This document shows positions 15,518 through 60,580 of a stretch of 64,000 nt of DNA, one piece after another. Made by a program: the position numbers and the translations under genes. The notes under the pieces were generated by a model. The model saw nothing but the letters and a program-made list of their open reading frames with translations. It was not told where the DNA came from and searched no databases. The DNA comes from an uncultured Nitrososphaerota archaeon (GTDB taxonomy: Archaea > Thermoproteota > Nitrososphaeria > Nitrososphaerales > Nitrosopumilaceae). Location of the stretch: contig OY969559.1 in NCBI GenBank assembly GCA_963701075.1, positions 1,760,001-1,824,000 of the forward strand, given 5' to 3'. Each line of letters opens with the position of its first letter. Positions within the stretch are counted from its first letter, which is position 1.

Positions 15518-16663
15518 TTATGCAATACCAAGCTCTGTAAATGTTTTGAGGGTCAGCCCGTCAGTTGATTTTAGGTTTGCAGCCCTATGCCCTACAACGC
15601 ACTCTATTCCTGCCTGTTTTGCAGAATCAATGAGCCTCTGTGTTATGATGCCGTCAAGTACGAGGTACTTTATTCCAGAACCAGGAGAGAGTTTTGCCAC
15701 TATCTCGCTTACAGGAACTTTGAATAGACTATTGAGTCCCTCATCTAGCGCTACAGCCTCTAGAGATTCATTGAGATCCGGATATACTTTTTTTACAATG
15801 TTTGCGATTGGTTCATCTTTTGGATCCTGAAGTTTTGGTTTGGCAGTTTCTTTTTTCATCTCCTCTGCTGTTTCCTTGAGAATATCTGCAATTTGTTGAG
15901 GAGTAAGTTCTTCTACCTCCACACCATCTGGTGCGCGATGAACCACGTCAACTGTTACAAGTGACTTTAATTCTTTTAAGATGAAACCGCCTGCCCTGTC
16001 CCCGTCAAGAAATGCAACTACTTTTTGCTTTGATTCACAAAGTGACTTGATGGATTCGTCAATCCTTGCACCTTCTATTGCAAGTGCGTTGTCAAATCCC
16101 GCCCTTAGAAGATTTATCACGTCTGCTCTTCCCTCAACTAGAATTACCCAAGGTGCATCAAAGACTCCTGAACCGCATGCAAGTTTTTCTTTTCCAAATG
16201 CAACAAGTTTTCCAGAAGATGTTACTTCTTGGACGTCCTTTAGCATCTCGTCTCCTTCACTAATTGTTTTGGTAGACCATTTCTGAACAATCTGTTTTGC
16301 TCTGTCAACAATCTCTTTCTTTTTGGCAGAACGAACATCCTCTATTGCTTCCAGTTTAAAGTTCGCCTGGAATGGGCCCACTTTATCGATGCTTTCTATT
16401 GCAGCTGCAATTAGTGCGGCAGTATTGATATCAGTACTCATAGGAATTAAGGCATCGCCTTTTGTTTGATTAGTCGTGCTCGTAGTGTTGACCTCGATTC
16501 GTCCTACTTTCGAGACTTTCTGAAGTTCATTTAGGTTCATCTCTGGACCAAGCAGACCTTCTGTTTGGCCAAAAATAGCGCCTATGATATCGGCTTTTTC
16601 GACGAGTCCATCTACGTCAAAGCTGAGCTTAACGTGATACTTGACAATTCCACTATATGGCAA
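15518..16663 (-). CDS. dnaG: Archaeal DnaG-like primase / exosome-associated protein
   Basis: GAIFGQTEGLLG, VEGRADV, FLDGDRAG Toprim motifs. Confidence 0.95.
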   Translation of the reverse strand: MPYSGIVKYHVKLSFDVDGLVEKADIIGAIFGQTEGLLGPEMNLNELQKVSKVGRIEVNTTSTTNQTKGDALIPMSTDINTAALIAAAIESIDKVGPFQANFKLEAIEDVRSAKKKEIVDRAKQIVQKWSTKTISEGDEMLKDVQEVTSSGKLVAFGKEKLACGSGVFDAPWVILVEGRADVINLLRAGFDNALAIEGARIDESIKSLCESKQKVVAFLDGDRAGGFILKELKSLVTVDVVHRAPDGVEVEELTPQQIADILKETAEEMKKETAKPKLQDPKDEPIANIVKKVYPDLNESLEAVALDEGLNSLFKVPVSEIVAKLSPGSGIKYLVLDGIITQRLIDSAKQAGIECVVGHRAANLKSTDGLTLKTFTELGIA

Positions 16664-16728
16664 ATCATTATCCTCTTAATTTTTTATCAATTAACATTCT
16701 TCAGGGGCAGATATAAGTGCTTATTGTC

Positions 16729-18006
16729 GGTTCTGTCAACTTGATGGCTCATGACAGGCATGTAAACTTTTTATGATATATCACAATTACCTTCTTCTTA
16801 AGAAGATCAGAGATATCAAAAGCCTGCCGTGCTATCAGTCAAGTGTGCAACACAGAATCATCGCTGTACCGAGATTCTACCAGTGATGAAGGATTTCAGG
16901 TTTGTCGTAAACGAGGCAATAAGGCTAGGTATCGAACATGATATCACATCTAGATTTAAACTGCGTAGTCTTGTCTATCCAAGGTTCAACAAGACGATGT
17001 ATTCCGGATATGTCCAAACTGCAATCTGGAAGGCTTGTGCCATGCTCAAAAACTATCGTCGAGCAAAAAAGAAGAATACGAGTGTAAAGATACCATTTAT
17101 GAAAAGATGCATACTTGTAATTGATAACCAGAGATACGAACTGGTCTACAACCATCTCAAGTTTCCGGTTAGACCAAGACAGTTTGTCTACATCCCTCTC
17201 AATCACTATACCTGTAATGTTTTGTTGCAACCAGGTCTGAAACTAGGAGAGGTTACATTAACTGATAGAAAATTATCCATATCTTATACAAGAGAGATGC
17301 CAAGAAAGGAACCGGCTGTATGCATTGGAATTGACATGAACCTTGAGAACGCAACTGGCACGGACGAAACAGGCACCACTACGGTACTAGACATGTCTGA
17401 TATCGTATCAATGAAAGTAAGATACAGAGATGTACTGTCACACTTTACAAGAAACGATGCCAGAATACAGAAGAGACTCAAACAAAAATATGGCAAGAAA
17501 CAAAAGAACAGAGAAGATACATTCCTGCACCAGAAATCAAGGGAGATTGTATCGCAAGGCAGACAGGTCATAATGGAGAAGCTCACTGGAATGCGAAAAC
17601 TGTACAGAAAGGGAAATGGTCAGGGAAGAATATTTAGGTTCAGACTAAACTCGTGGTCAAGATTCAAGCTGCAGCGACAGATTCAATACAAGTCGGTTGA
17701 CTGGAACAGCCTTGAAGTGATTTTTGTAAAACCAAATGGGACCTCATCGAGGTGTGCGGCATGTGGGTCTAAAATGATACCCGAAGAGCACCGAGTGATG
17801 AGATGTCCGACCTGTCGTATTACGATAGACAGGGATGTAAACGCCAGCAGAAACATTCTGGCTAGAGGCTTGGCAATGCTGGAACAGAAAGTGCCAGCAC
17901 GGTTCGAGCCTGACGCAGTGCAAGGTGAAGCGATGAAGCAGTTCAAAGATGTGGAGCAGATTGCACCGAGTCTACTTGTTGGATGAGCCATCAAGTTGAC
18001 AGAACC
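16729..18006 (+). mobile_element. Non-autonomous tnpB element with 24-bp terminal inverted repeats and 8-bp target duplication
   Basis: GGTTCTGTCAACTTGATGGCTCAT (16729-16752) is the exact reverse complement of 17983-18006; TTATTGTC duplicated at 16721-16728 and 18007-18014. Confidence 0.92.
16829..17986 (+). CDS. tnpB: TnpB RNA-guided endonuclease
   Basis: RuvC-I GIDMN, RuvC-II MEKL, zinc finger CAAC/CPTC, RuvC-III DRDVNASRNI. Confidence 0.92.
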   Translation: MLSVKCATQNHRCTEILPVMKDFRFVVNEAIRLGIEHDITSRFKLRSLVYPRFNKTMYSGYVQTAIWKACAMLKNYRRAKKKNTSVKIPFMKRCILVIDNQRYELVYNHLKFPVRPRQFVYIPLNHYTCNVLLQPGLKLGEVTLTDRKLSISYTREMPRKEPAVCIGIDMNLENATGTDETGTTTVLDMSDIVSMKVRYRDVLSHFTRNDARIQKRLKQKYGKKQKNREDTFLHQKSREIVSQGRQVIMEKLTGMRKLYRKGNGQGRIFRFRLNSWSRFKLQRQIQYKSVDWNSLEVIFVKPNGTSSRCAACGSKMIPEEHRVMRCPTCRITIDRDVNASRNILARGLAMLEQKVPARFEPDAVQGEAMKQFKDVEQIAPSLLVG

Positions 18007-18025
18007 TTATTGTCAGATCCTCGTT
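17890..18025 (+). ncRNA. Putative omega-RNA overlapping the tnpB 3' end (boundaries approximate)
   Basis: Inferred from TnpB biology; low-information protein tail over CGGTTCGAGCCTGA...GTGAAGCGATGA. Confidence 0.4.
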
Positions 18026-18390
18026 CAAGAGTACAAAGACAGATCCTCGATATGTCGTGCCTTGCCTTTTGTTATCTTGATCAATCTTCGTCTAAATGAG
18101 AGATCTACAGTCATGCGGTGCTCAAGGTGTGAGACTGTCCTTTTAGTAAGATATGCCCCCTTCCTGTCGTAATCAAAAAGTACAATCAGTTTCTTGAATT
18201 TTGGCATCGAGTCTACAAATTTTACCAGGCCCTTGAAGCTGTGAAACTGGCAGATCCTGCCAGAAAAGCCAAGTTCTCGTAGTGCTTCTTCGTCTTTTTT
18301 TCCCTCCACTGCTACAATACAGTCCTTTTTTGAATTAAGAGAATGGATGAAATGGTGTAACTCTGATATCTCAGATTCATCAAGATGCAT
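18025..18390 (-). CDS. Small Toprim-domain protein
   Basis: VAVEGKKD, LFDYDRKG. Confidence 0.85.
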   Translation of the reverse strand: MHLDESEISELHHFIHSLNSKKDCIVAVEGKKDEEALRELGFSGRICQFHSFKGLVKFVDSMPKFKKLIVLFDYDRKGAYLTKRTVSHLEHRMTVDLSFRRRLIKITKGKARHIEDLSLYS

Positions 18391-56858: not shown

Positions 56859-57006
56859 CTTACCGTATGTTACGGTACGAGTACCTAATAAAGATATTGT
56901 TTGAAGGCTCTGTAAAGTTATCGGCTCAGCAAAAAACTGTAAAAATCGGCTCATTTGGACACCCTTTTAAAACACAGACACGATCTTCGAAACTAAGAAA
57001 CTATCA

Positions 57007-57804
57007 ATGTTTTACCAATGGATTATCAAAATTTTGGGTGTTATGCTTGGAAGTGTTTTAACAGTCTTGACTTTAATATTTCCAAATGCTACCAAAGCCT
57101 TCCTGATTGCTCATTTAGGAATAACAGACTCGACAATTGTGTCAGATTTGATATTTGGAACGGGTATAGTAGTAGCAATTGGAGTGGCTATCATCATAAT
57201 TCATAGTATACTCAAACATCTAGGGTATAGAATTATTCGTCAGGAAAATGGATTAACAAAACCAATGCCAAATCAAGAATTAGATAAAAAACCTCAAAAT
57301 GGTTCTCGGGATGAATTATTATTGGATAGTACAAGTACAATTAGTCCACAAACAAAAGAACAACAAGAATTGTACAAGGAAAAACCCCAAAAATCAAAGT
57401 TAGAAGATCTAATACAGGAATTAGACGCATTTAGGAAAAAATGGTCAAAACGTCGTGGTTGGAAAATTGGTTATCGTAGTAATATTCAAGACAGAAATAT
57501 GGGTAAGGGCACTATAGAAGAATTACGAGAGAAATCAAGACAGATACAATGGAAAATTAAATACTTTAAAGAATTAGAAATCGCAGATTCTCAAAATGTT
57601 CTCATTCCGTTAGAACAAATTGCAGATAGAATAACAGCTTTCACATTAGAAATCGAATCAACTTTTCAGGATAAATATCTAAAAGAAGCTAAGAAAATAG
57701 AATCTGAAAAAATAAACCGACTTCTATTAGATGGAGATAGAATCAATGGAGAGTTGAAATTGCTTATTCAACAATTAGAATCGTTAATAAGAAAACTACC
57801 ATGA
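57007..57804 (+). CDS. IS6 passenger: two-TM protein with helical C-terminus
   Basis: 265-aa AT-rich ORF inside the TIRs. Confidence 0.65.
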   Translation: MFYQWIIKILGVMLGSVLTVLTLIFPNATKAFLIAHLGITDSTIVSDLIFGTGIVVAIGVAIIIIHSILKHLGYRIIRQENGLTKPMPNQELDKKPQNGSRDELLLDSTSTISPQTKEQQELYKEKPQKSKLEDLIQELDAFRKKWSKRRGWKIGYRSNIQDRNMGKGTIEELREKSRQIQWKIKYFKELEIADSQNVLIPLEQIADRITAFTLEIESTFQDKYLKEAKKIESEKINRLLLDGDRINGELKLLIQQLESLIRKLP

Positions 57805-57808
57805 TGAG

Positions 57809-57949
57809 CTATCCTGATTTTCTTAAATACTCACTTAGTATGACTCTAATAGTTTCAGGTAACGTTTCTAACATTCTTTCCTTACGTTCCTTCTCTAATG
57901 CCCGTTCCATTTCTTCAGGTATAGAAACCATAAATCGCTTCATTGCCAT
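57809..57949 (-). CDS. Small RHH/CopG-like regulator of the IS6
   Basis: MAMKRFMVSIPEEMERALEKERKER...ETIRVILSEYL; divergent from the transposase. Confidence 0.7.
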   Translation of the reverse strand: MAMKRFMVSIPEEMERALEKERKERMLETLPETIRVILSEYLRKSG

Positions 57950-58012
57950 GTACTTATTGATACTTATAGATATATTTAATAATATCGCTATGTATAGTAT
58001 CAATAGGTATCT

Positions 58013-59171
58013 AATGAAACAACTAGACAAATGCAATAGAGAGGAAAGCGGAAAGGAAATAGCCCTTAATCCCAATCAGCAGATTCTAAGAATCAACGAT
58101 TACACTTATCACGTAAAATCACAGACTACCAAGAGAGAATATGACGTAATCTCTACTGAAAGCGGTTGGATTTGCACATGCCCAGATCACACATACAGAA
58201 AGATATGCTGTAAGCATATCCACGCAGTAGAATTTTCAATCAGGCTTCGAGAACAAGTGCGAAAGGAAAGATCAGTAACCATACAACAAGTAAACGTAAC
58301 TGCTTGCCCTGATTGCATGTCTGAGAACTTTGTAAGGCATGGAATCAGACACAACAAGCTTGGAGATATTCAAAGATACTATTGCAACGACTGTAAGAAA
58401 TGGTTCAGTTTCAATCTCGGATTTGAAAAGATGCACGCCACACCACAGGCGATAACATCAGCAATGCAACTCTATTTTACAGGCGAATCACTAAGAAGCG
58501 TTCAAAAGTTCTTGAAACTTCAAGGAATCAAAGTTTCTCACATGACCGTTTACAACTGGATCAGCAAATACACTAGTCTAATGGAAAAGTATCTCGAAAA
58601 GATAACTCCACAGGTAGGAGATACTTGGAGAGCCGATGAAGTGTGGGTAAAGGTAAAAGGCGACAAAAAGTATCTATTTGCACTGATGGATGATGAAACA
58701 CGATACTGGATAGCAAAGGAAGTGTCAGACAAGAAGGAAGGTCACGATGCTAGCGGACTATTTAGAGAAGCAAAGCAAGTAACAAAGACTAGTCCTAAAG
58801 TTATGATAACAGACGGCTTACCATCTTATGATGAAGCATTTAGGAAGGAATTTTTCACACAAAAGAATCCTAGAACCGTTCACATCAAGCATATCAGAAT
58901 GTCAGGGGATATGAATAACAATAAAATGGAAAGACTCAACGGTGAGTTTAGAGATAGAGAAAAAGTAGTCAGAGGACTAAAGAAGGAAGATTCGCCACTG
59001 ATTAACGGTTATCAGATATTTCACAACTATATCCGACCACACATGGCTTTAGACGGCAAGACACCAAGCGAAGCTTGCGGTATAAAGATCGAGGGTGACA
59101 ACAAGTGGCTTACACTAATTCAAAATGCCGAAATGAGCCGACAATTTACAGGGAGAAAAATGTGCCGTTGA
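58013..59171 (+). CDS. IS6-family DDE transposase with SWIM and zinc-ribbon domains
   Basis: CTCPD...CKH, CPDC/CNDC, WRADE, ITDGL.SY, NNKMER, HNYIRPH. Confidence 0.92.
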
Positions 59172-59240
59172 TTGTACAGAGCCTGTTTGAAGGTGCTGTA
59201 TAATCTGCGGTTGATAAATTTACTGTAAAGAATCGGTTGA

Positions 59241-59804: not shown

Positions 59805-59944
59805 GTTATAATTAACAATAAACGATTATTTAGAAATTACTCATTTGGTATCACACTTTTTTTTTATTGTGATACTAGAGTGGTAATAGAGACATCTTTC
59901 TACCTTACATGAGAGGCGTTCTCAATAATGGTTTTCCATTTATT

Positions 59945-60110
59945 CTCACCCTTAATCTCAATTCCTGCCCTGTCTGCTGGCGTTTGACCGTCTAGTGCCA
60001 TGCGCGGTCACGTAATTATGAAAGATTTGATAGCCCTTAATCAAAGGCGAGTCGTCTTTTTTCAATCCCCTTACTACCTTTTCATGATCTCGGATCTCCC
60101 ATTCAATCTC
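59945..60110 (-). pseudogene. IS6 transposase 3' fragment
   Basis: EIRDHEKVVRGLKKDDSPLIKGYQIFHNY matches the C-terminus of the intact IS6 transposase. Confidence 0.8.
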
Positions 60111-60139
60111 TGGTTCTGTCAACTTGATAGCACATCCCT

Positions 60140-60388
60140 TCACTTTTTCTCCGTGTCAACTGTAGGTTCATTTTTACCATTCCATACGTGATACATTCTG
60201 AGGGAATACAGAATACTAATCAGTATTACTATCCCAAACATAACAAAGAGTAATGGAATACCTGTCGTCAGTTTATCTGGTGTTAATTGATACTTTTGTA
60301 TAACAAAGTAGGAAATTATTGAGTAGATAGCCGTAATAATAACAACTCTTGCAATGAGGTCTTTAGTAACCGTTCCAAAAATTCTCAT
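60140..60388 (-). CDS. Small two-TM membrane protein between IS6 relics
   Basis: 82 aa, two hydrophobic helices. Confidence 0.55.
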   Translation of the reverse strand: MRIFGTVTKDLIARVVIITAIYSIISYFVIQKYQLTPDKLTTGIPLLFVMFGIVILISILYSLRMYHVWNGKNEPTVDTEKK

Positions 60389-60424
60389 GTTTGTTTTTCA
60401 CTCGCATTTTGAATTAAGGTTTTC

Positions 60425-60580
60425 CACTTGTCATTCCCATGAATTGTTATACCACGAACTTCCGCAGGAGTCTTACCTTCTAAAGCCATGCAAGGTCTAA
60501 TGTAGTTATAAAATATCTAATAGCCTGAGATTAACGGAGAATTTTTCTTTTTGATTCCTTGTACACTTTCTCTCTGTCAA
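60425..60580 (-). pseudogene. Second IS6 transposase 3' fragment
   Basis: Minus strand reads DREKV.GIK...SPLISGY*IFYNYIRPCMALEGKTPAE with an internal stop. Confidence 0.75.

Follow-up and report, generated by a model that had tools for sequence, protein, structure and literature searches.

A TnpB nuclease gene between IS6-type ends: a probable non-autonomous transposon of Nitrosopumilaceae archaea

TnpB, a compact genome-editing nuclease, is the protein from which Cas12 descends. The role commonly assigned to it is to cut the site vacated by a transposon, whereupon the transposon is copied back, and this requires a transposase that inserts beside a transposon-adjacent motif (TAM) and precise excision. 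Here we describe a 64,000-nucleotide stretch of DNA from an uncultured, ammonia-oxidising Nitrososphaerota archaeon of soil, family Nitrosopumilaceae (contig OY969559.1, positions 1,760,001 to 1,824,000; hereafter the window), which contains a 1278-bp element at window positions 16729-18006 with a single intact tnpB as its gene content. In all likelihood, this element is an IS6-type non-autonomous TnpB transposon, and its mobilisation is very probably carried out by an IS6-family transposase. It inserted as one unit and duplicated 8 bp of its target. In its full form, our reading is that tnpB and its own RNA scaffold lie between two copies of an archaeal IS6 right-end type, which we consider probable, whereas functional homing by an omega-RNA and a TAM, as set out below, has about an even chance of being correct.

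The element and its borders comprise the following features, all in window coordinates:

16721-16728, no strand: left copy of the target-site duplication (TSD) TTATTGTC, an octamer that is single in 29 of 29 empty sites.
16729-16752, plus strand: left terminal inverted repeat (TIR) GGTTCTGTCAACTTGATGGCTCAT, IS6-type, with a GG tip and CTGT; identical to the right arm at 24 of 24 positions.
16753-16828, plus strand: 5' untranslated leader, with the box ATATCACAATTACC at 16778-16791 and the palindrome CTTCTTAAGAAG at 16794-16805.
16829-17986, plus strand: tnpB, 385 amino acids, RNA-guided nuclease family; the sole long open reading frame (ORF), assigned by Pfam, NCBIfam and structure-chain alignment.
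17983-18006, minus strand: right TIR, containing the tnpB stop codon at 17984-17986, read from the sequence.
18007-18014, no strand: right copy of the TSD TTATTGTC, from the sequence and the empty sites.

The two arms of 24 nt are 100% complementary, with a spacing of 1230 nt, and the octamer stands directly outside both of them. At up to three mismatches, the 24-mer end occurs three times in the window, where shuffled sequence gives an expectation of zero. Besides the two arms, there is a solo end at 60112-60135 with two mismatches. The insertion point lies between a Toprim-domain gene (15518-16663, minus strand) and an ORF of 121 amino acids, in a genome that consists of a single contig of 1.92 Mb (38.6% G+C, 95%-complete).

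The genus was queried with the left flank alone, and every one of the 29 loci fetched from other genomes is an empty site, in which GATATAAGTGC, a single TTATTGTC-like octamer and the right flank adjoin in direct succession. The full octamer is present in 13 of the 29, all 29 show AAGTGC followed by TTAT..., and the element is absent even where the flank of a relative is 96-97% identical. Because the octamer is single in each empty site, the 8 bp represent a real target duplication and the insertion is specific to this lineage. Four of the empty sites come from unpublished genomes. The unpublished genomes used in this work are G011, G012, G019, G028 and G034, and the main claims stand without them; two details given below, the end identity between position 60112 and locus L038 and the TSD of locus L034, rest on them.

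The protein matches the Pfam model Cas12f1-like_TNB (1.7e-16) and the NCBIfam model guided_TnpB (104 bits, cut-off 100). Its RuvC-II/zinc-ribbon/RuvC-III part aligns to solved chains of TranC, TnpB and Cas12f, and in that alignment the catalytic E (VIMEKL), the catalytic D (DRDVNAS) and the CxxC...CxxC ribbon are in place; the first RuvC D (GIDMN) was identified by eye. Three claims of an earlier sequence-only reading of this DNA are thereby confirmed, namely perfect 24-bp TIRs around a tnpB-only element of 1278 bp, an 8-bp target duplication (two copies here, one in each empty site), and an intact RuvC D-E-D motif with a zinc finger. Among the three intact copies of this genome, the ratio of nonsynonymous to synonymous divergence (dN/dS) is 0.20-0.27 at a synonymous divergence (dS) of 0.24-0.40, which indicates that tnpB is under purifying selection. 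The stop codon TGA lies inside the right arm. In copy A (170124-171403 of the genome), the TGA of the right end is CGA and the ORF continues through the repeat into the flank, giving 396 amino acids; the position of the stop codon within the repeat is thus not essential. Upstream of the gene, the leader box ATATCACAATTACC recurs, as judged by eye, in the copies and in distant paralogues, and it is followed by the perfect palindrome CTTCTTAAGAAG; judged from sequence, the two may form a promoter or operator.

The element is not alone in its genome, which holds three intact copies and one pseudogene at four different sites. Besides the window copy, W, the intact copies are A and B, the latter at 243783-245058. 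A frameshifted copy near 1701532 has no matching duplication, and solo ends are found elsewhere in the genome too. The TSDs agree at 8 of 8 positions for W (TTATTGTC) and for B (TATTTGAC), and at 7 of 8 for A (TAATCTT[A/G]). The three intact proteins are 83-87% identical to one another, and no more than 1-2 of the 48 positions in the 24-nt ends have changed between copies. Ends that are nearly unchanged while silent sites have diverged by 24-40% are evidently under selection.

An independent copy occurs at an unrelated locus of genome G074 (L102). Similar right flanks had suggested it as an orthologue of W, a suggestion that was rejected, as G074 has the W site empty on another contig (L169); the flanks of L102 map to this genome (G000) at 1.251 Mb. 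The right flank of L102 resembles window positions 18015-18036 (AGATCCT...TTCAAGA..., about 18 of 22 bases alike in two independent insertions), and in G074 this stretch is non-homologous to the corresponding locus of G000. The likeness could be due to chance, to a co-transferred flank or to guide-related targeting.

Beyond these copies, a metagenome scan returned 11 loci, three of them of the W lineage, of which one is cut by a contig end and one has a decayed left end. Repeats of the GG[T/C]TCTG type also terminate TnpB paralogues of 31-57% identity, which come from this genome, from the genus and from two further families of the order. Perfect 8-bp TSDs were found for the paralogues L021 (CTCTCTTT), L025 (CTACATAT), L127 and L100 and for five copies in the complete genome G014, and 8-bp TSDs were recognised by eye in L202, L206 and L208. 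Inverted-repeat ends in many copies and in divergent lineages mean that the element represents a family and not a one-off. Many TnpB copies retain the right end only. At L003 (G035), L005 (G007) and L007 (G030; the same as L203), the DNA beyond the GG tips itself consists of inverted repeats (8-19 nt), and there is no direct duplication; L005 and L007 are one old insertion common to two species.

Smaller derivatives also exist. Two loci, L128 (G070:C81, 449 bp) and L146 (G016:C164, 306 bp), are internal-deletion derivatives of a TnpB element of the second lineage introduced below and occupy one shared site. Both retain the two ends and the right-end region and are comparable to miniature inverted-repeat transposable elements (MITEs), as offspring of the TnpB cassette. 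At L098 (G029:C20), L118 (G071:C65) and L113 (G080:C2), palindromes of 23-45 bp consist of two facing ends with nothing between them; each might be a minimal MITE, the product of a deletion or a solo hairpin of the right end.

The assignment of the ends to the IS6 family draws on their sequence and on transposase-bearing elements of the window and the genus. The end, GGTTCTGTC..., carries a GG tip and CTGT as the signature of the IS6 family, the inverted repeats of which have a GG tip and a cTGTt motif according to the available part of an IS6 review (PMC7986276). In the window, the following features are relevant:

56906-59183, plus strand: autonomous IS6-family element of 2278 bp, with the TSD TGTTTGAA at 56898-56905 and 59184-59191.
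57007-57804: extra ORF of this element, 265 amino acids, without a Pfam match, upstream of the transposase.
58014-59171: IS6 transposase (NCBIfam IS6, 130 bits, cut-off 125; Pfam DDE_Tnp_IS240, 3.4e-18).
60112-60135, plus strand: solo IS6-type end, identical to the TnpB ends at 22 of 24 positions, among decayed transposase fragments.

The transposase has a zinc-finger N-terminal extension, the element of 2278 bp is about three times the canonical size, and the IS6-type DDE domain (Pfam DDE_Tnp_IS240) is the only one found in the genome. An IS6 element with an 8-bp TSD had been recognised in the sequence-only reading, correctly so apart from a transposase start at 58013 that is one base off. 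The same reading proposed this transposase as the partner of the TnpB element. The family holds, but the ends are not the best matched, as the TnpB end agrees with the left end of the window IS6 at 17 of 24 positions and with its right end at 16 of 24. Better matches are found at 60112 and in sister genomes: intact IS6 elements of G006 agree at 20-22 of 24 positions (22 of 24 at the right end), and the two ends of a 2336-bp IS6 in G014 at 21 and 22 of 24. The solo end at 60112-60135 matches the right end of an intact G034 IS6 exactly (L038; unpublished genome) and is flanked by decayed C-terminal fragments of an IS6 transposase on the minus strand (59903-60098 and 60400-60564). From its sequence, the 60112 region looks like the wreck of the matched partner IS6. 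Between the two fragments there is also an 82-amino-acid membrane-like ORF (60140-60388) with no Pfam match.

IS6 transposases are present in 56 of the 63 genomes of the genus, and 9 of 30 fetched IS6 loci yielded, by script, paired ends together with a perfect 8-bp TSD. The match between TnpB elements and autonomous elements extends to a second TnpB lineage, which is 31-35% identical to the first and has the ends GGTTCTGTCGGGTTATCGAGACCT. In the elements of G036 and G014, these ends agree at 24 of 24 positions with a transposase-bearing element of 4910 bp (G066:C14:3722-8631, TSD TTTATTGA), and they also resemble those of a G008 element of 4042 bp (TSD CCTGAAAG). A TnpB at G005:C23 is 79-82% identical to the G014 copies, yet it has W-type ends, from which it follows that ends are exchanged between TnpB lineages and follow the transposase type.

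The element encodes no IS6 DDE transposase; tnpB is its only gene, and it is therefore a transposase-less relative of IS6 and not IS6 proper. Since no transposase lies within any TnpB element, we infer mobilisation in trans rather than observe it. The domains Y1_Tnp (PF01797) and Resolvase (PF00239) gave no match in the single-contig genome, while control genomes respond. With neither a Y1 or serine TnpA in the genome nor a transposase in cis, mobilisation in trans by the IS6 family is the only supported route. The central proposal of the sequence-only reading, a solo tnpB in IS6-type ends that is moved in trans by an IS6-family transposase, is thus supported by near-identical ends, copies at multiple sites and empty sites.

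Several arrangements were noted around the IS6-type ends. The target ...ACCTAATAAAGATAT followed by TGTTTGA[A/T] (window 56876-56905) is occupied by IS6 elements in both G000 and G006 (L035), the transposases of which are 79% identical, and an IS6 in G011 (L034, unpublished) abuts the ...ACCTAATAAAGATAT target from the other side; the shared target could be an insertion hot spot or reflect element replacement. At L032 (G015) and L033 (G079), an IS6 is flanked on both sides by other IS6 ends exactly 8 bp away (…CAGAACC-8 bp-GGTTCTG…), which suggests insertion next to resident ends. Near copy A, at a distance of 1.5 kb, there is a solo W-type end (23 of 24) at G000:C1:168583-169057 (L112:1501-1974). 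A HicA/HicB toxin-antitoxin pair (Pfam 1.8e-19 and 3e-10) lies inside this stretch, which is possibly the remnant of another cargo-carrying IS6-type element.

The borders of the element have features that may belong to a guide RNA and its target motif. The features concerned are:

17900-18006, plus strand, limits approximate: putative omega-RNA scaffold over the tnpB 3' end, from synonymous and nucleotide conservation.
17970-18000, plus strand: predicted guide-proximal hairpin, with AGAACC single-stranded, from covariation.
18007-18026, plus strand: predicted guide-encoding flank, consisting of the TSD and the next 12 nt, by analogy with known TnpB architecture.
16716-16720, plus strand: candidate TAM AGTGC, with T-G-Y at -3 to -1, directly 5' of the left TSD, from comparison of elements.

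In the hairpin, the last tnpB codons provide the 5' strand and positions 7-20 of the right inverted repeat provide the 3' strand. In an alignment of 15 sequences, three of them from unpublished genomes (L002, L008, L029), the stem is paired in 93.9% of cells, compared with 17-55% when the partner strand is slid. Two stem pairs change between U-A and C-G (8 versus 6 sequences), and the observed covariation was reached by none of 500 shuffles. In the second lineage, the hairpin recurs with every end type, and where the end type had been exchanged, the two strands of the stem had changed together. Of 14 elements, 13 have a right end that folds more stably than their own left end, and the right ends of nine autonomous IS6 elements fold weakly. 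Conservation of the coding sequence points in the same direction. Synonymous-codon identity, which is about 0.55 for the greater part of tnpB (the other windows that precede column 361 range from 0.44 to 0.67), reaches 0.84 at columns 361-380 of the alignment. Nucleotide-level conservation also extends over the final ~90 nt of the ORF, across proteins of 55-100% identity. These properties fit a putative omega-RNA formed by the tnpB 3' end and the right repeat and running to the tip of the element, and the covarying hairpin supports the earlier suggestion that the predicted omega-RNA includes the inverted end. In a search of the element against Rfam, the only match was a chance, miRNA-like one (E = 0.65), and a long-range UUCUG/CAGAA closure in the fold of the 157-nt tail has, by eye, no covariation support. 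The predicted guide retains an uninterrupted match of at least 12 nt in 4 of the 29 empty sites.

An empty allele shows the match to the guide preceded by the left flank, and a flank motif was sought accordingly, 5' of the left TSD in tnpB orientation. In the W lineage, T-G-Y occupies this position in seven of the nine elements whose left end could be identified (W, A, B, G074, the pseudogene, L199 and L201). The 12 independent sites of lineage 2 read GTA, TTA, ATA, TTA, TTA, TTA, TTA, GTA, TTG, TTG, TTG and ATA. All 12 have T at -2, and all 12 have a purine at -1; the motif of this lineage is written T-T-R. The motif is not mirrored on the right flank and is absent at nine autonomous IS6 flanks. 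In the one clear case of an end swap, G005:C23, it tracks the TnpB lineage and not the end type. Simulation with random sites gave 2e-5 for lineage 2 and 1.5e-5 for the seven sites of the W lineage. The sequence-only reading had assumed that there is no fixed insertion motif, which is contradicted by T-G-Y and T-T-R directly 5' of the duplication. From these alignments, T-G-Y (W lineage) and T-T-R (lineage 2) are candidate TAMs.

Together, these features suggest a possible mechanism. An IS6-family DDE transposase acting in trans would bind the ends and insert the cassette through a cut staggered by 8 bp. The best-matching transposase appears to be decayed in this genome, and the copies are possibly stranded now. 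Transcription of tnpB would proceed through its 3' end, and the last ~100 nt of the ORF together with the right end would form the omega-RNA scaffold, with a final stem that uses repeat positions 7-20 and is followed by AGAACC. Read-through into the flank would yield the guide, composed of the duplication and downstream bases. An empty allele would then offer the guide sequence preceded by the left flank with T-G-Y (T-T-R in lineage 2) as the TAM, and the occupied site would be safe because AGAACC replaces the TAM. TnpB would cut empty or precisely excised alleles, the element would be copied back by recombination, and copies landing beside a TAM would preferentially be kept. In such a scheme, homing by obligate mobile element-guided activity (OMEGA) would be rebuilt on a DDE (IS6-type) chassis, in which one repeat would serve both the transposase, as binding site, and the omega-RNA, as guide-proximal stem. 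The guide would begin with the TSD, the TAM would lie at the TSD edge, and only copies beside a TAM could cut such alleles and persist. We put this last proposal forward tentatively, at somewhat under an even chance.

A number of observations weigh against this interpretation. The sole intact IS6 transposase of the genome has ends that are like the TnpB ends at only 16-17 of 24 positions, and physical linkage is missing in both directions, with an IS6 transposase in 0 of 30 TnpB loci and TnpB in 0 of 30 IS6 loci. According to the available part of the IS6 review, the IS6/IS26 elements studied so far move by copy-in cointegrates without excision (PMC7986276), and an IS6 without excision removes the usual rationale for TnpB homing. 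The copies within the genome are old, as seen from their protein identity of 83-87%, and give no sign of current activity. Most TnpB loci are decayed: a good end pair with a TSD was present in only 4 of the first 30 loci, and in a further set of 44 loci (18 newly fetched, 26 re-scanned) none showed the end pair with TSD by the earlier criteria, L182 and L018 passing only a looser filter with a TSD of 6 of 8. Ends without a matching TSD are found in L003, L005/L007, L029 and L201. With regard to the RNA, the covariation comes mainly from two end types within one clade and thus from few independent events, and the whole 157-nt tail exceeds its shuffles in folding only by a small margin (z = -1.68). 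Recognition of the flank motif was post hoc, and the null consisted of random genomic sites rather than AT-rich intergenic DNA; T-G-Y is absent from L002 and L200 of the W lineage, both of which have decayed ends, and the 57%-identical sublineage of L202 and L208 lacks a common flank motif.

Several of these points would suit an alternative in which movement is of the IS6 type, while TnpB is cargo or a decaying passenger without homing. The motif would then reflect target preference or AT-rich DNA, and the hairpin would act at the DNA level or stabilise a transcript. Decay of most copies, the lack of excision in the IS6 elements studied so far (PMC7986276, available part) and the post hoc motif with its exceptions agree with this alternative, as does the observation that the W-lineage TSDs all begin with T and are AT-rich, which amounts to some plain target bias. 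We nevertheless regard it as unlikely, given the purifying selection on tnpB (dN/dS 0.20-0.27) and catalytic residues that align with solved structures. Moreover, the motif is one-sided although the two ends of W are identical, it tracks the TnpB lineage at G005:C23 and is missing from the nine autonomous IS6 flanks, and a hairpin of this kind is weak or lacking both at the left ends of the TnpB elements themselves and at the right ends of autonomous IS6 elements.

A different possibility is that TnpB itself picks the insertion site, its binding to the TAM biasing the IS6 transposase towards insertion 8 bp downstream. Such primitive nuclease-assisted targeting would be a loose parallel to Cas12k-guided Tn7-like transposons. 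The fixed spacing, by which the motif directly borders the 8-bp duplication in the two lineages alike, and the tracking of the TnpB lineage by the motif would be explained in this way. Survivorship through homing gives the same pattern without a new mechanism, no locus shows transposase-TnpB linkage or an adaptor gene, and TAM binding alone confers little specificity. In addition, the TnpB described here retains its catalytic residues, unlike guided-transposition effectors such as Cas12k, which are inactive. We consider site choice by TnpB quite improbable, and TAM-assisted target choice less likely than preferential retention beside a TAM. Hardly any credence is due to an ordinary IS200/IS605-type (IS1341-group) tnpB element that landed once inside a pre-existing IS6 MITE, even though TnpB usually occurs in IS200/IS605 or IS607 elements, without inverted ends, as the available part of a 2026 review states (PMC13565253). 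Three TnpB lineages, 31-57% identical, have inverted ends and 8-bp TSDs in several genomes, the end of the ORF pairs and covaries with the inverted repeat, the stop codon inside the repeat leaves no room for internal IS605 ends, and the genome has no Y1 or serine TnpA. The comparison of other genomic copies that the sequence-only reading had proposed as a check is consistent with this, since TIRs and 8-bp TSDs recur in divergent lineages and the one-off insertion into a MITE fails as an explanation.

TnpB proteins linked to DDE transposons have been described before. Six DDE-associated TnpB branches (DDE-1 to DDE-6) with inverted terminal repeats were reported, together with solo TnpBs that have the same ends, for which mobilisation in trans was proposed; as a partner, only IS630 was named (Altae-Tran et al., 2023, PNAS; PMC10691335). 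The general concept of a DDE-linked TnpB, with inverted ends and with solo copies mobilised in trans, is thus already published (PMC10691335). The elements described here resemble those branches in the inverted repeats that flank TnpB, in a TnpB 3' end near the transposon end and in solo copies that share the ends of transposase-bearing elements. They differ from them in that the transposase is never in cis, the repeat forms the last stem of the putative omega-RNA and the TAM-like motif abuts the TSD. As TnpB partners, the 2026 review lists ISL2, IS630 and IS1031 in its available part (PMC13565253), and IS6 is not named as a partner in the main text, as far as available, of either publication (PMC10691335; PMC13565253). 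A literature search that did not cover supplementary tables found no paper linking TnpB with IS6. Relative to these texts, what is new here is the IS6 partner family, the putative scaffold stem embedded in the repeat and the TAM candidate encoded by the flank.

In comparison with IS6/IS26, the common features are the GG-tipped CTGT repeats, the 8-bp TSD, a window transposase that passes the IS6 model and the existence of non-autonomous derivatives. In contrast, the partners here are archaeal elements of 2.3-4.9 kb with a zinc-finger-extended transposase and extra ORFs. Canonical IS6 members comprise 0.7-0.9 kb and one gene; one passenger-carrying member and two MITEs are on record in the available part of the IS6 review, where TnpB is unmentioned (PMC7986276).

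The IS1341 group of the IS200/IS605 elements shares the nuclease family with the present element and, as predicted by analogy, a putative scaffold over the tnpB 3' end up to the tip, with a guide from the flank and a 5' TAM to be expected. IS200/IS605 elements insert by a Y1 transposase 3' of a fixed motif of 4-5 nt and excise precisely, and the homing model of TnpB and its omega-RNA is reportedly due to Karvelis in 2021 and Meers in 2023. IS200/IS605 elements have asymmetric hairpin ends and neither inverted ends nor a TSD, whereas perfect 24-nt TIRs and an 8-bp TSD are present here; the 8-bp duplication stands between the TAM-like motif and the element, and the likely transposase is of the DDE/IS6 type.

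Among eukaryotes, Fanzor proteins are said to have been reported in DDE transposons by Saito in 2023. An earlier description of Fanzor in such transposons is that of Bao and Jurka (2013; PMC3627910). As in the present case, a TnpB-family nuclease is located inside TIR/TSD transposons of several DDE superfamilies; the carriers of Fanzor differ in being eukaryotic or viral, often with a transposase, and belong to different superfamilies. In the available part of a survey of thaumarchaeal mobile elements, genes such as the one described here are filed under IS200/IS605 (PMC6563490).

The rarity of TnpB in prokaryotic DDE transposons has been attributed, in the available part of the 2026 review, possibly to inflexible target recognition (PMC13565253). 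The elements described here provide a concrete case for TnpB on a DDE chassis, and their flank motifs predict the TAMs T-G-Y and T-T-R. If the proposed mechanism is true, an RNA-guided nuclease would have been re-fitted to a different transposition chemistry, and the family would illustrate, as the first worked example, how RNA-guided homing operates in a prokaryotic transposon that makes TSDs and lacks a sequence-specific transposase. Genome sequence alone would then offer a natural read-out of the TAM, and small archaeal TnpBs with predicted TAMs would join the toolbox. These elements are common in soil ammonia oxidisers, which are environmentally important, and there they would be mis-annotated as IS200/IS605.

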